From the NCBI GenBank assembly GCA_001303665.1, contig LJUF01000001.1:1-34088 (forward strand): DNA of 34,088 nt. Direction: 5' to 3'. Both the position numbers and the translations under genes were made by a program. Origin of the DNA: Phycisphaerae bacterium SM23_33. GTDB taxonomy: Bacteria; Planctomycetota; Phycisphaerae; SM23-33. Below, one piece after another: positions 3,601 to 34,088 of this stretch. The notes beneath the pieces are model-generated. The model had not been told where the DNA came from. It ran no database searches and worked only from the letters and a program-made list of their open reading frames with translations. Position 1 is the first letter of the stretch; each line of letters starts with the position of its first letter.

Positions 3601-3987
3601 TCATTTCACCACGATTTTGTTGACGACCCTGCCCAGCAGGTCGAAGATGCGGTTCGCGTTGTCCTTGAGCGCCCGTTCCAAGTATTTCTTGCCGGGAACT
3701 TTCGTGCCCTTCGCAGTCGTCCATCCTAATTCTTGGAATGGAGCATAAACCACGTTGCTGCCCACTACGCCTTGCACCGTGTTGCTTTGCTGCCTGACCT
3801 CCGGCGTGATGCTGGCCCTGAGCCGCCCCGTATCCACCGGCGCGTTGATCTTGGCATGGCGTTCAACGAGCAGCGTCGCGTCCCTCATGCCCTGCAGGAA
3901 CGCGCCGCCTTGCAGGTCGCTGACGATCTGCTCCATTTTGGCTTGCACCTTTTCCATTCCCCGGACTTCTACGGTTACGTCGGTCAT
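3601..3987 (-). CDS. HK97 gp10-family head-tail joining protein
   Basis: 128 aa carrying the hallmark APVDTGRLRASI motif of the HK97-gp10-like family. Position is consistent with a neck module. Confidence 0.85.
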   Translation of the reverse strand: MTDVTVEVRGMEKVQAKMEQIVSDLQGGAFLQGMRDATLLVERHAKINAPVDTGRLRASITPEVRQQSNTVQGVVGSNVVYAPFQELGWTTAKGTKVPGKKYLERALKDNANRIFDLLGRVVNKIVVK

Positions 3988-3994
3988 TTGACAA
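3978..3994. repeat. 17-bp perfect direct repeat, copy 1 (cgtcggtcatttgacaa)
   Basis: Identical 17-mer occurs again at 4179-4195, 201 bp away. Copy 1 covers the first 10 nt of the gp10-like CDS (ATGACCGACG on the minus strand) plus the -35 hexamer of P1. Confidence 0.9.
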
Positions 3995-4016
3995 GATTTC
4001 CAATTGATACTATAAT
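3988..4016 (+). promoter_or_regulatory. Consensus sigma70-type promoter P1
   Basis: TTGACA (3988-3993), a spacer of exactly 17 nt, then TATAAT (4011-4016). Both hexamers match consensus perfectly. The predicted start near A4023 coincides with the first paired base of the downstream long stem. Confidence 0.7.
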
Positions 4017-4022
4017 ATCTTC

Positions 4023-4155
4023 ATTAAGCGGTAGAGAGCCTAGCCCTCCCGGGGTGGTAGAGTTGGAGGGGCGTGCCCCACATTAACCTGCGTAGCGTCT
4101 CCCGGTGGGGTTGGTCGGAGACCCAAGCCACCCGCTAGGCTCTTTGCCGCTTAAT
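4023..4155 (+). ncRNA. Unclassified structured RNA candidate (about 133 nt, 22-bp closing stem)
   Basis: 4023-4044 (attaagcggtagagagcctagc) pairs with 4134-4155 (gctaggctctttgccgcttaat) over 22 contiguous pairs. Two of these (4032/4146, 4034/4144) are G-U wobbles only in the plus-strand RNA and would be A-C mismatches on the minus strand. The GC-rich interior has several alternative helices, for example 4097-4102/4117-4122 and 4052-4057/4128-4133. It is followed by AGTTTCT. Confidence 0.45.
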
Positions 4156-4178
4156 AGTTTCTATCACCGCCTACCTAT

Positions 4179-4195
4179 CGTCGGTCATTTGACAA
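4179..4195. repeat. 17-bp perfect direct repeat, copy 2
   Basis: Identical to 3978-3994 and carries the -35 hexamer of P2. On the minus strand it gives only the pseudo-start ATGACCGACGATAGGTAG. Confidence 0.9.
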
Positions 4196-4217
4196 CCTAG
4201 AACATTTGTGTTATACT
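4189..4217 (+). promoter_or_regulatory. Near-consensus sigma70-type promoter P2
   Basis: TTGACA (4189-4194), 17-nt spacer, TATACT (4212-4217). The spacers of P1 and P2 are unrelated, yet both keep the 17-nt spacing and a good -10. Confidence 0.6.
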
Positions 4218-4221
4218 ATGT

Positions 4222-4302
4222 TTGGTTGGCAAGCGATTCGCGCTCGATAGGCGGTTTTCTTTATGCCCCCAATCTGCTAGAGTTGCGGTGCTTGCCAACC
4301 AA
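4222..4302 (+). promoter_or_regulatory. 5' leader stem-loop of the P2 transcript
   Basis: ttggttggcaagc (4222-4234) is perfectly complementary to gcttgccaaccaa (4290-4302), giving a 13-bp stem that begins at the predicted P2 start. The leader runs about 240 nt to the HNH start, with a T6 run at 4331-4336. Confidence 0.4.
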
Positions 4303-4337
4303 CAAGAACCGCCAGCGGAGCGGGGGCACTTTTTTCA

Positions 4338-4440
4338 GGGCGAGACCTGGCGAAGCGAGGCGCGGCATGGCGAGACGAGACGAGGCCTGTCCCGGCTTGC
4401 CCGGTCCTGGCAGGGCGTGGTTGATCGAGGCAAGGCAAGG
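4338..4440. repeat. Degenerate purine-rich repeat block U (upstream flank of the cassette genes)
   Basis: Shares exact words with the downstream block: ggcgagacctg (4339/5373), gcgaggcgcgg (4355/5465), ggtcctggca (4403/5478), ggcaaggcaagg (4429/5428). GAGAC/GAGGC/AAGGC pentamers recur with roughly 10-nt phasing. Confidence 0.6.
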
Positions 4441-4466
4441 ATTATCATAGAAAGGAATGCAGTCAT

Positions 4467-4967
4467 GTGAAATCACCTAGAAATGGATGGCGCGAAGCCG
4501 TCCTGGAACGGGACAATTTTGAATGTCAACTCTCAAAGTTGTTCGGCATAGCTGAGTTGACTGGCGTGCCCTGTTCGGAGGCGTTGCAGGCACATCACAA
4601 GACCTATGAACGATATGGTCAGGAACGCCCGGAAGATGGAATATGTGTTTGTGAAAGGTGCCATGACATCCTAACCGATGCGATAAGGCGCACACGCTAT
4701 TCAGCGAGAAATGCGCAATTCAAATGGGAACGAGATGTCGAAATGGTTACACCGAAACCAAGAAAGGATAAGGACAGTGAAAAAGCTACATTTTACCATC
4801 GTGGGCGAAGCCCCATTACTGATGCACAACGGGCGGCTGGCCGACAGGGACGACCCGTACAGCCGCAAGATGAGCGAGATCTCCAGCAAGAGGAGCAAAA
4901 CCGACGCCGATTACGAAGAACTAGCCAGGATGGAGTTCTTGGGCGGCCTCTACCTAGACGAGAATGA
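4467..4967 (+). CDS. HNH endonuclease (small phage type); C-terminal extent uncertain
   Basis: GTG start with AAAGGAA SD. WREAVLERDNFECQ...LQAHHKTYERYGQERPEDGICVCERCHDILT fits the HNH/zinc-finger pattern. About 43% GC. After about residue 100 the frame turns into Arg/Gln-rich low-complexity sequence that overlaps the next gene. Confidence 0.7.
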   Translation: MKSPRNGWREAVLERDNFECQLSKLFGIAELTGVPCSEALQAHHKTYERYGQERPEDGICVCERCHDILTDAIRRTRYSARNAQFKWERDVEMVTPKPRKDKDSEKATFYHRGRSPITDAQRAAGRQGRPVQPQDERDLQQEEQNRRRLRRTSQDGVLGRPLPRRE

Positions 4968-5361
4968 ACAACCTTGTATCCCCGGTTACGTCTTCGAGGC
5001 GTGTATCATTGGCAAGGGTGGCGCTGCCAGAAAGGAACGGATGGGCAAGGAAGCTGCTGCCGCTGTTTGGGTATTGGATGATGCGCCCTTGGAATATGAT
5101 GGACCGCGTGATCCCCAAGAACTTTGGCAGGACAAACGCTTCATATCGCAGTCTCTTGTCAGGGTGCAACGGAATACCGTCAAGCGCACCCGTCCCCGCT
5201 TCAAGGAATGGCAGGCCAATGTCACGGTCGAGTTCAACGAGAACTTGGTTGACGAGACCGATGTCCGCCGTTGGATTGAAGTCGCTGGTGAGCAAGTCGG
5301 CCTGATGGACTGGCGGCCTCGCTTCGGGCGGTTCCGCGTTGAATGGGACGGGCACAAATAA
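4777..5361 (+). CDS. Unknown protein, possible RAMP-like fold (speculative)
   Basis: ORF 4711..5361. The favoured start is GTG 4777 (AAGGA upstream), giving VKKLHFTIVGEAPLLMHNG... Composition is good throughout. Features include a beta-strand plus LLMHNG, then QPCIPGYVFEACIIGKGG, and a C-terminal GLMDWRPRFGRFRV. I recognise no family with confidence. Confidence 0.6.
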   Translation: MKKLHFTIVGEAPLLMHNGRLADRDDPYSRKMSEISSKRSKTDADYEELARMEFLGGLYLDENEQPCIPGYVFEACIIGKGGAARKERMGKEAAAAVWVLDDAPLEYDGPRDPQELWQDKRFISQSLVRVQRNTVKRTRPRFKEWQANVTVEFNENLVDETDVRRWIEVAGEQVGLMDWRPRFGRFRVEWDGHK

Positions 5362-5365
5362 CAGC

Positions 5366-5535
5366 ATGGCCTGGCGAGACCTGACGAGACTGGACGAGGT
5401 CGGACCTGACGAGACTTGATGGGGTGGGGCAAGGCAAGGGTGCTCTCAATTGTTAATGTACAAGGCGAGGCGCGGTTGGTCCTGGCATGTTCAGGCGCGG
5501 CGCGACCGGGTTGTGTTAGGCAAGGTAGAGCTTGG
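5366..5535. repeat. Degenerate repeat blocks D1+D2 (downstream flank of the cassette genes)
   Basis: D1 is 10-nt phased: ctggcgagac / ctgacgagac / tggacgaggt / cggac ctgacgagac (5371-5415), then ggcaaggcaagg. D2 (5461-5535) matches block U in colinear order with one gap of about 40 nt. Confidence 0.6.
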
Positions 5536-5542
5536 CATGGAA

Positions 5543-5570
5543 AAGGGCTGGCTGAAAAAAGTCAGCCCTT
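5543..5570. terminator. Bidirectional hairpin terminator between convergent units
   Basis: aagggctg (5543-5550) pairs with cagccctt (5563-5570). On the minus strand it lies 2 nt after the connector stop and is followed by TTTTCC. On the plus strand it is followed by TATCATC. The U-tracts are short. Confidence 0.5.
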
Positions 5571-5572
5571 TA

Positions 5573-6244
5573 TCATCTCCTACCAACCGTTGGTTTAACA
5601 TAACGCCCATCTATGAGCAACCTTCTTATGTCAGGGTCTAAAGATTGGCGATATAGTAAAGTTCCCAACTCACTTGAAGCTAAGACATCAGACATAGCGC
5701 TTTGGAAACGTTTATACCACCTGCTCGACTGCATCAGCGCCGCTTCCTTGATGTCGTAAGGCACGCTGGCCGCGAAGCCCCACCTGGCCGTGATGCGGCA
5801 AGTCGGCGCGCCCCTGCTCACGTCCGTCAGCGGCCTGAACCCGCCCTTTGAGGTGTACTTCCCCGAAGTGAAAACCGAATAATCCCCCGTCGGGTCCACC
5901 ATGACCATGTCGTAAGGCGTGCTGTTGAAGTCCGGCGCCTGCGGGTCGCCGGAGCAGGCGATCCAGTCCGCCGCGGCCCAGGCTTCGTAGTCGTCGTCGG
6001 CGGCCGAGTCTTTCACCTCGACCAGGGTGACGGACACGCACTCGTCGATGTAGAGGTACGGCCTGCCCGTCCCGGCGTAGATGCGGGCGCTGGCCGTCGC
6101 GTCGGCCTCGAAACCGTCTGGCCGGTTGCAGGCGCGGTTGATGTTGCGCTCCGCCGCCGCGATGAGCGCCGTCAGCGTGGCGTCGTCCGCCGCGCTGGTC
6201 TTGTCTATGCGGGCGCGTAGCTCGACTGCTGTGGCGTACGCCAT
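5573..6244 (-). CDS. Head-tail connector protein (gp6-like N-terminus, extended)
   Basis: MAYATAVELRARIDKTSAADDATLTALIAAAERNINRACNR is typical of the gp6-like head-tail connector / DNA-packaging family. ATG with GGAGG-N7. At 223 aa it is longer than the usual ~110 aa. Confidence 0.7.
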   Translation of the reverse strand: MAYATAVELRARIDKTSAADDATLTALIAAAERNINRACNRPDGFEADATASARIYAGTGRPYLYIDECVSVTLVEVKDSAADDDYEAWAAADWIACSGDPQAPDFNSTPYDMVMVDPTGDYSVFTSGKYTSKGGFRPLTDVSRGAPTCRITARWGFAASVPYDIKEAALMQSSRWYKRFQSAMSDVLASSELGTLLYRQSLDPDIRRLLIDGRYVKPTVGRR

Positions 6245-33058: not shown

Positions 33059-33787
33059 TTACACGTAACCAAACGATTTATACATCAGTATGCGATTAAA
33101 GGCACTCGCCTGCCCTTCGCTACCATGCAACCAGTTATGATAACCCTGACTACATACAAATAAGTTTTCGAGACGGTTATCATGTTTATTCCCATTCAAA
33201 TGATGTACCAGTTCATCTGAGCACAAAGGGCGCCCAAGTTCTTTGGCTATGACAACGCGGTGCCCTAATTCATTATCAACAAATACATAAGGCCGATGAT
33301 CGCCGTTTGCGTGCAATCTGGCAACGTGGCATTCCCAACATACCTCGGCCCGCCTTGCCATTAGCTTGCCACATCCGCAAATATTATATTGTGGGGCTTC
33401 CGAAGGGTCTATGCCTCTAGTGTCAAGTAACGCCCGGACAGCCTCACTATCAGACTCCTTAATACGTTTATGTCTTCGGCAATTCAGGCATAATGCTGAT
33501 GTCTTCGCTTTCGGCGCTCCACATTCACAAAGGTTGTATTGACATGTATCACGGGGACTTCTGCCTTCGGCACTAAGCAACGCTCGCATGTTAGCACTAT
33601 TGAGCCTCCACTCACGCCTCCGACACCTCAGGCATCTCTTCCCGCCAGGACTTTTGAGTCCACCACACTCAGGACAAACGTAACGCTCCGGCTTGGATGC
33701 CTGGCCTACGCCAGCACATTTACTACATCTTTTGGATGTCCGATACTTATAGCCCCCACAATCAGGGCAAATATTCACGTTCGACAT
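33059..33787 (-). CDS. HNH endonuclease with four N-terminal zinc-ribbon repeats
   Basis: ELVHHLNGNKHDNRLENLFVC...HNWLH forms the HNH core. It is preceded by four repeats of a CxxC(G)...CxxC(R) pattern. ATG 33787 has a GAGGA SD (the track start is 33823). About 43% GC. Confidence 0.8.
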   Translation of the reverse strand: MSNVNICPDCGGYKYRTSKRCSKCAGVGQASKPERYVCPECGGLKSPGGKRCLRCRRREWRLNSANMRALLSAEGRSPRDTCQYNLCECGAPKAKTSALCLNCRRHKRIKESDSEAVRALLDTRGIDPSEAPQYNICGCGKLMARRAEVCWECHVARLHANGDHRPYVFVDNELGHRVVIAKELGRPLCSDELVHHLNGNKHDNRLENLFVCSQGYHNWLHGSEGQASAFNRILMYKSFGYV

Positions 33788-34088
33788 CTTGTTCCTCATT
33801 AGCTTGTGCATAAATCTCGGCAAGCTGCTTTAGTGCTCGCTCCTGTTGCTCTGCCGTTAGTTGTACATTCCCTACCAGCAATGGCCCACCTTCCGCCCCG
33901 GTGATCTCCTGCCGCAATTTTCTTCCCCCTGTCTCCTTTGCTAAATCATCCAACACGCCGCGCAACTCACTAATGATAGCCGCATTGAATCGCTCAATAT
34001 CTATTCGCTCAATATTCTTACCAGCGCCAATTTGCTTGACATCTGGCAACCATACATTATGATAATTCCCGTCTTCACCCTGCTCATA
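33762..34088 (-). CDS. terS: Probable terminase small subunit, C-terminal part (5' end outside the window)
   Basis: The frame is open from base 34088 (YEQGEDGNYHNVWLPDVKQIGAGKN...). Coiled-coil acidic C-terminus. The call rests on its position upstream of HNH and terL only. Confidence 0.45.
   Translation of the reverse strand, partial: YEQGEDGNYHNVWLPDVKQIGAGKNIERIDIERFNAAIISELRGVLDDLAKETGGRKLRQEITGAEGGPLLVGNVQLTAEQQERALKQLAEIYAQANEEQDVEREYLP

Follow-up and report, generated by a model that had tools for sequence, protein, structure and literature searches.

What does a small RAMP-like protein do among the neck genes of a phage, and is the HNH gene that runs into it from upstream read across the overlap? 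Both questions are raised by positions 4777–5361 of the 34,088-nucleotide contig LJUF01000001.1 from the assembly of Phycisphaerae bacterium SM23_33 (GCA_001303665.1); this whole stretch is referred to as the window. An earlier note, made from the letters of the window, proposed that the open reading frame (ORF) at these positions encodes a protein loosely similar to RAMPs of the Cas5/6/7 type. Here, we identify the protein as Vipr, a small Cas7-like RAMP. The key to the locus is a set of arrays of candidate guide RNAs, which the earlier note did not notice. The three GGYNN arrays, Vipr and an HNH partner very probably make up an interference system of the VIPR (Viral Interference Programmable Repeat) kind, aimed at the adaptor gene of related phages.

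VIPR is described in three 2026 preprints (10.64898/2026.04.26.720920 and 10.64898/2026.04.26.720927 among them). According to these sources, Vipr is a protein of ~20 kDa from an early-branching RAMP lineage, and VIPR is proposed as the viral ancestor of the CRISPR RAMP effectors. In these systems, Vipr polymerises, one protomer per repeat, on a guide RNA (vrRNA) in which GGY and NN alternate. Only the NN dinucleotides engage in base pairing with double-stranded DNA, and one target base in three is passed over. The natural targets are competing phages and satellites, and they are known for few clades. Both the kind and its HNH-bearing variant are already known from the discovery preprint, and the window adds a further member.

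The ORF encodes Vipr

As the earlier note had supposed, the ORF is real. It lies on the plus strand, starts with GTG and is conserved, with 656 homologues at E ≤ 1e-3; tblastn matches are found in 130 phage records, the Felixounavirus relatives of SUSP1 among them. A longer form of the ORF starts at ATG 4711. GTG 4777 has better support as the start, because phrog_4652 (E 2.8e-52) aligns to the long form from its residue 23 onwards, homologues are mostly 189–195 aa long (best 120 of 656), and an AAAGGA Shine-Dalgarno-like site is positioned 8 nt upstream, as it is in every related locus.

In a phmmer search of PDB sequences, the protein matches SUSP1 Vipr (PDB 36pp) with an E value of 3.9e-27, residues 1–189 aligning to residues 1–188 of 202 at 36% identity. 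The residues that read the GGY are kept: H17, R139, and D178-W179-R180 correspond to H17, R138, and D177-W178-R179 of SUSP1, and they are invariant or nearly so among 22 relatives. Three motifs picked by eye in the earlier note map to functional elements of the solved SUSP1 structure (10.64898/2026.04.26.720927). LLMHNG contains H17, the reader of G1; GLMDWRPRFGRF is the G-loop, which contains D178-W179-R180; and PCIPGYVFEAC is RRM helix 1.

An AlphaFold (AF2) model built on the homologue alignment (predicted local distance difference test score 93, predicted template modelling score 0.85) has, together with the kept residues, the RAMP architecture of an RRM core, a thumb, and a glycine-rich loop. 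The Foldseek search that had been suggested as a check places Csm3, Cmr4, and type VII Cas7 subunits, and not a non-RAMP family, at the top of the PDB list (E down to 2e-5, template modelling (TM) score ~0.5, identity 10–16%). The protein has no match in Pfam, NCBIfam or PADLOC.

Three GGYNN arrays flank the genes

A scan for period-5 GGY units, run on the window and the whole 3.43 Mb assembly, identifies three arrays, vrRNA-A, vrRNA-B, and vrRNA-C, all on the plus strand and flanking the HNH gene and vipr (Table 1). The intergenic regions flanking vipr thus carry the run of at least four tandem YNNGG/GGYNN units by which a VIPR locus is recognised, and the placement matches that in related loci. 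The rest of the 3.43 Mb metagenome-assembled genome (MAG) contains no further GGYNN array. Its sole other period-5 scorer, at positions 1333–1452 of contig C21, is a GGC/GCC/CGC repeat with a period of 15 nt, which looks like coding low-complexity sequence and not a vrRNA.

Across 562 units from eight loci, the first position is G at a frequency of 0.94, the second G at 0.81 (A at 0.14), and the third Y at 0.98, with N4 and N5 close to uniform. The arrays in these eight loci end in GGCAR-GG, followed by ~20–28 AT-rich nt that often include AATYAT, and in related loci the next array opens with GGCRY. In the window, the AT-rich tail of vrRNA-A (4439–4466) carries the ribosome-binding site of the HNH gene.

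vrRNA-C matches the adaptor gene of sister phages

To search for targets, we apply the published rule (NN pairing with one base skipped) and the published threshold of 80% of NN positions, with shuffled guides as the null. In the MAG, none of guides A, B, and C has a match above the shuffled-guide nulls. The top match of guide C in the whole assembly is the head-tail adaptor gene beside the cassette, at 21 of 30 positions, codon-aligned and with the skip at the wobble base. In six related phage contigs, guide C matches the DNA of the same adaptor codons at 27/30 positions (90%; L040–L043) or 24/30 (80%; L044–L045), the wobble base being skipped here as well; across 2000 shuffles of the guide, the highest score is 22. 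These sites reach at least 80% of NN positions with a one-base skip, as a natural target of vrRNA-C should. All six target phages are without the cassette at the junction of the adaptor gene and the gp10-like gene.

At the protein level, many adaptor homologues carry EACLMQAARWYKRF, which matches guide C at 14 of 14 amino acids against a null maximum of 7. The target stretch is conserved at 0.79, compared with 0.70 over the whole adaptor protein. The carrier's own allele, EAALMQSSRWYKRFQ, is unique among 120 adaptor homologues. At each of the three conserved codons where it departs from the guide, it has a residue that only a minority of homologues share (A169, 10%; S173, 17%; S174, 12%); it mismatches both Arg codons through codon-family differences, and falls below the published 80% threshold. 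Because the match is 24–27/30 in the relatives and 21/30 in the recoded own allele, guide C is predicted to recognise sister phages and not its carrier.

Of two metagenome pattern scans for the target, the first was empty and the second yielded two genuine targets. In IMG/VR, searches for exact matches to parts of the guides return nothing for C (22 bases), B (20 bases) or A (20 bases). A 16-base C pattern gives 15 matches in IMG/VR, all of them attributable to chance. The idea that A or B is aimed at the uninterrupted adaptor/gp10 junction is discarded, the best matches falling at no consistent position.

One of the target phages has a distant VIPR of its own (L040, 11653–12998), composed of a Vipr with 29% identity, three GGYNN arrays, and an adjacent RHH gene instead of the HNH gene. 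Its guides have no match above chance in the window phage, and reciprocal targeting is not seen.

Some guides of related loci resemble their own flanks

When each of 32 guides from seven HNH–vipr loci is scanned against the locus that carries it, the best match of six guides falls inside the cassette or next to it, with P ≤ 0.015 for each and the reading frame usually kept. Adjacent genes account for five of these matches and the locus's own vipr for one (binomial P 7e-6).

Three of the related loci illustrate the positions involved. The guide at 2040–2139 of L015 corresponds to 1835–1887 of that locus, where the upstream gene has its last 16 codons, and the guide at 3966–4050 of L011 corresponds to 4069–4112, where the downstream gene has its first codons. 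In L022, the guide at 3936–3995 corresponds to 3854–3882, the G-loop of its own vipr, at 18/20 positions, with an Arg family switch as one mismatch. These three matches, all in frame, may reflect self-regulation or recoded copies of targets.

The HNH gene overlaps vipr

The HNH frame shares exactly 191 nt with vipr, which lies in the +1 frame. The earlier note had described both the frame relation and the run of the HNH frame into the ORF as an Arg- and Gln-rich tail; the tail proves to be rich in Arg, Gln, and Glu. Both the ORF, with its 656 homologues, and the long open HNH frame inside it exceed chance. The HNH protein matches HNH PHROG families (phrog_119, E 4.4e-9), has a His/Cys motif, and is paired with Vipr in 11 loci, as is expected of the HNH accessory gene of a nuclease-bearing VIPR. 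Its sole NCBIfam match is to the IscB HNH domain (E 2.5e-4), far below the cut-off. Residues H43, H44, D57, C62, and H66 are invariant among 16 homologues. In the AlphaFold model, residues 4–85 form a confident fold and residues 90–135 are disordered, with ~90–166 constituting a basic, mostly disordered tail.

The arrangement is not peculiar to the window. With tblastn, the HNH gene is found upstream of vipr in ten further loci, over a range of Vipr identity from 82% down to 44%; in some of them gene callers had overlooked it. In all 11 loci vipr is at +1, and no stop interrupts the HNH frame for 128–218 nt into vipr. When synonymous codons are shuffled within each vipr gene, the median open length is 26–113 nt, with per-locus P values of 0.0004–0.14 and a Fisher combined P of 2e-8 that is indicative only, as the loci are related. 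Stops in the HNH frame are frequent beyond the end of the overlap, and in three type II-like vipr genes without an upstream HNH gene the corresponding frame closes after 53–89 nt. The comparison of synonymous sites that had been proposed as a check shows that synonymous differences are somewhat rarer within the overlap (0.49 compared with 0.60). Four near-identical metagenome contigs have zero substitutions in the cassette and are hence uninformative on frame use.

Because the overlap and the frame relation recur in 11 loci and the frame is open for longer than expected by chance, both frames are probably translated. Of the two alternatives in the earlier note, a disordered basic tail encoded in an overlapping frame or a frame that is not translated there, the former is favoured by the 11 loci, the avoidance of stops, and the modelled disorder of residues 90–135. 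In our reading, the tail matters by its presence, length, and basic character, not by its exact sequence.

A frameshift fusion of HNH and Vipr is rejected. In every locus, vipr has its own ribosome-binding site and start inside the HNH frame, and in-frame stops are positioned 33–105 nt upstream of the vipr start. The slippery site that the earlier note did not find is therefore not required.

Gene predictions for the overlap are in conflict (L016–L019, L020, L022, and L023). The Joint Genome Institute (JGI) calls vipr alone and leaves out the HNH gene, as on four identical contigs, and other callers give the full HNH gene and a Vipr shortened to 135–151 aa, for example P0100 (151 aa). Public protein sets therefore contain many truncated Vipr entries. 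With the HNH gene absent from some calls and Vipr cut to ~150 aa in others, public entries for both families are unreliable.

The cassette is an insertion in a phage neck module

The window is a single contig that contains genes for the tape measure, the portal, the large terminase, and the neck, all on the minus strand, and genes overrun both of its ends. These genes indicate that the contig is a fragment of a siphovirus-like genome. The cassette is situated in the neck module, between the head-tail adaptor gene and the gp10-like gene, which are 1585 bp apart. In seven of seven related phage contigs examined at this junction (L024 and L040–L045) the two genes abut, which identifies the cassette as an insertion. 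Cassettes of the same type are found in relatives among replication, lysis, structural or other genes; these varied neighbourhoods indicate that the cassette has moved.

Table 1 Features of the cassette and its flanks in the window.
Feature	Position	Strand	Description
VIPR cassette	3988–5572	+	Opposite to flanking genes; lower GC
vipr	4777–5361	+	GTG start; 194-aa RAMP protein
HNH accessory nuclease gene (vap), predicted	4467–4967	+	GTG to TGA; 166 aa; last 63 codons overlap vipr
vrRNA-A	4339–4438	+	20 tandem GGYNN units (12 GGY, 3 GAY, 5 degenerate); ends GGCAA-GGCAA
vrRNA-B	5368–5437	+	14 units, 8 GAY; ends GGCAA-GGCAA
vrRNA-C	5464–5538	+	15 units; NN code [DE]A[CW]L[IM][HQ]AAR[CW]Y[KN][SR][FL][IM]
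Own copy of vrRNA-C site	5703–5746	-	Adaptor codons 167–181, EAALMQSSRWYKRFQ; 21/30
Head-tail adaptor gene (gp6-like)	5573–6244	-	Upstream flank of cassette in late operon
HK97 gp10-like neck/tail-completion gene	3601–3987	-	Downstream flank of cassette; abuts adaptor gene in cassette-free relatives
Promoter-like site P1	3988–4016	+	TTGACA-17-TATAAT, 12/12; directly against gp10-like start codon
Promoter-like site P2	4189–4217	+	TTGACA-17-TATACT with TG, 11/12
Hairpin element, 133 nt	4023–4155	+	22-bp closing stem; minimum free energy -70.2 kcal/mol, z -3.5; cassette edge
Leader hairpin	4222–4302	+	13-bp perfect arms, between P2 and vrRNA-A; z only -1.4, weakly supported
Bidirectional terminator-like hairpin	5537–5576	.	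Closes cassette on + strand, adaptor gene on - strand

P2 is the probable promoter of a transcript that comprises vrRNA-A, the HNH gene, vipr, vrRNA-B, and vrRNA-C. An Rfam search of positions 3900–5700 returns nothing, and thus no hammerhead or other known RNA; the 133-nt hairpin element has no Rfam match and no homologue in the related loci compared or in the MAG. A 44-nt direct repeat is present in two copies 201 nt apart, at 3978–4021 (the P1 region) and 4179–4222 (P2). In each copy, 10 nt from the very start of the minus-strand gp10-like gene (CGTCGGTCAT) are joined to a consensus TTGACA promoter; in the second copy, this gene start is dead (M-T-D-D-R-stop). The repeat looks like a nested insertion or duplication that brought the 133-nt hairpin to the edge of the cassette.

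At the other end of the window, a second, unrelated HNH endonuclease gene (33059–33823, minus strand) directly adjoins the large terminase gene. An HNH gene beside a terminase gene is the usual HNH–terminase packaging pair.

Proposed mechanism and alternatives

If the locus works as the SUSP1 system does, the arrays would be transcribed from one or more host-type consensus promoters and then cut into vrRNAs. Each GGY would be bound by one Vipr protomer so that the NN bases are presented, and the filament would invade double-stranded DNA at the cognate site of a relative that co-infects or superinfects the cell. By binding within the adaptor gene, in the middle of the operon, it would block the late (neck and tail) operon of the rival. 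The HNH partner may cut the bound DNA, by analogy with the nuclease-bearing VIPR types, and its basic tail would be translated and would probably touch nucleic acid or the filament.

Several observations weigh against this reading. No sampled relative has a 30/30 match to guide C, and neither vrRNA-A nor vrRNA-B has a target above the null (at the nucleotide level in the MAG, the window, L024, and L040–L043, and with the IMG/VR patterns; at the amino-acid level in 413 proteins). In vrRNA-B, 8 of the 14 units are GAY, and a change of GGY to GAY abolished silencing in SUSP1, according to the legend of Fig. S12 of the preprint; vrRNA-B may therefore be decayed, or it may be a tolerated variant. 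Within Vipr, K33, E71, and M72 of SUSP1 are replaced by S33, Y71, and V72, and so neither the Y3-pocket residues (E71 and M72) nor the backbone contact (K33) is kept. For the HNH protein, the Pfam HNH match is below the cut-off (E 0.032), Foldseek on the model finds nothing significant, and the amino acids of the tail are hardly more conserved than the constraint on Vipr predicts (z 2.0 compared with 1.3 in a control region). The assignment of the host is uncertain, because the GC content of the contig is 0.609 and that of the MAG (322 contigs, 3.43 Mb) is 0.678; the phage may have been mis-binned and not be a prophage of the organism of the assembly.

Among the alternatives, a degraded CRISPR–Cas system that left a stray Cas7 or Csm3 deserves almost no credence. 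Csm3 subunits do top the Foldseek list, but at 10–16% identity and a TM score of ~0.5, against an E value of 3.9e-27 to SUSP1 Vipr. Besides, no Cas family of PADLOC or NCBIfam is matched, and the window has GGYNN arrays instead of a CRISPR array or another cas gene. The resemblance to RAMPs asserted in the earlier note therefore stands, by the match to SUSP1 Vipr and the Csm3/Cmr4/Cas7 folds; the protein is not a Cas5/6/7 of a CRISPR system, the window being without a CRISPR array or another cas gene. Also improbable, if less so, is that the HNH frame encodes a free-standing homing endonuclease with no relation to vipr, beside which it happens to lie, the tail being untranslated or a functionless read-through yet to acquire a stop. 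Such an origin would suit a tail that is barely conserved beyond the constraint on Vipr and is modelled as disordered, as well as the JGI calls that leave the HNH gene out. It is at odds with a pairing, frame relation, and overlap that persist to 44% Vipr identity, with stops that are avoided over 128–191 nt and then become frequent, and with the lower frequency of synonymous differences in the overlap. More credible than these two, yet on the whole doubtful, is a complex that only silences: it would block late-operon transcription of the rival, with the HNH-domain protein serving, like vap1 of SUSP1, as a helper that binds DNA and does not cut it. Silencing without a nuclease, enhanced by vap1, is demonstrated for SUSP1 in the preprints, the Pfam HNH match is below threshold, and the canonical Asn of the H-N-H motif is not evident, D57 being the invariant residue near that position. 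Conversely, the 16 homologues show little or no variation at H43, H44, H66, and the zinc-binding cysteines, which suggests a live active site, and the discovery preprint treats nuclease-bearing types as target-destroying.

A further reading, which we advance tentatively, makes the cassette not only a weapon but also a selfish mobile element. At co-infection, the filament would bring the HNH protein to the cassette-free adaptor allele, a cut would be made 130–173 bp from the insertion point, and repair would copy the cassette in; the own allele would be immune because it is recoded. What the window offers here is an insertion between conserved genes with empty sites, a target site 130–173 bp from the insertion point, and an own allele mismatched at codons specified by the guide (21/30 compared with 24–27/30). 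All six carriers of the site are among the seven relatives with an empty junction, 6 of the 32 guides have their best match within or beside their own cassette, and the type of cassette occurs in differing neighbourhoods. Free-standing phage HNH homing endonucleases act likewise. Set against this are the single window guide out of three with a target in a flank, the partial matches to own flanks, which self-regulation or an origin of the guides in local sequence would explain equally well, and the silence of the available VIPR preprint text on homing. That HNH-armed VIPR cassettes in general are RNA-guided homing elements, whose guides target cassette-free alleles of the flanking genes for cutting by the HNH protein and copying by repair, is likewise conceivable rather than probable. 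Within such a scheme, the Arg codon-family switches might be a synonymous escape from a code that is blind to the wobble base, a suggestion that we would not press, and the conserved overlap of vipr and the HNH gene might perhaps couple the synthesis of the two proteins. If homing were true, it would tie RNA-guided targeting to selfish spread in phages, as with TnpB and IscB in transposons.

The locus provides a clean natural example outside the enterobacterial phages, with a guide, a cognate site in six cassette-free sister phages, and a recoded, sub-threshold copy in the carrier. The guide and the two alleles together make self/non-self discrimination directly testable. Neither the conserved overlap of 128–218 nt between the HNH gene and vipr nor the frequent likeness of guides to genes on their own flanks appears in the available text of the VIPR preprints, and the available text of the discovery preprint likewise does not mention gene overlap or the targeting of flank alleles.

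Comparison with known systems

Among the closest known systems is the type II VIPR of Escherichia phage SUSP1, which consists of Vipr, vrRNAs, and vap1 (PDB 36pp). Like the cassette in the window, it is borne by a phage, has GGYNN vrRNAs on both sides of its genes, and has a target with a one-base skip at the wobble positions of codons, in a competing mobile element. The two differ in the accessory gene, which in SUSP1 is the downstream, DNA-binding vap1 and in the window encodes an HNH-domain protein upstream of vipr and overlapping it. They may also differ in the tail of the vrRNA, a pseudoknot of ~40 nt in SUSP1 and, by its sequence, a short AT-rich stretch of ~20–28 nt after GGCAR-GG in the type of the window. 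GAY units occur in arrays of the latter type (14% A at position 2), unlike in SUSP1. Finally, the target is a satellite in SUSP1 and, in the window, the allelic neck gene of sister phages.

The nuclease-bearing types III–V, as described in the discovery preprint and its Fig. S21 (an HNH-domain Vap), combine Vipr, a predicted HNH nuclease, and GGYNN guides at viral sequences, as the window does. We infer that the locus belongs to these types, the type number being likewise a deduction. By the same text, these types are enriched in cellular defence islands, whereas the locus in the window is not in such an island but inside the virion operon of a phage.

With Csm3, Cmr4, and Cas7 of type III and type VII CRISPR systems, Vipr shares the RAMP fold of an RRM core, a thumb, and a glycine-rich loop; these proteins, too, form polymers along a guide RNA, with bases flipped at regular intervals. 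In the Vipr system the period is 5 and not 6, the information of the guide is non-contiguous, and the target is double-stranded DNA. Compared with those systems, the window is without a CRISPR array, Cas10 or Cas11, and adaptation genes.

Free-standing HNH homing endonucleases of phages place a nuclease gene between conserved genes, have their site in the cassette-free allele, and leave their own allele protected by polymorphism, and the guide-RNA nucleases TnpB and IscB promote the retention of their transposons. The window shares with them a nuclease gene between conserved genes, a nearby site in the cassette-free allele, and a polymorphic own allele. Unlike in these elements, recognition here would come from a separate filament of RAMP protein and RNA, and not from the nuclease.

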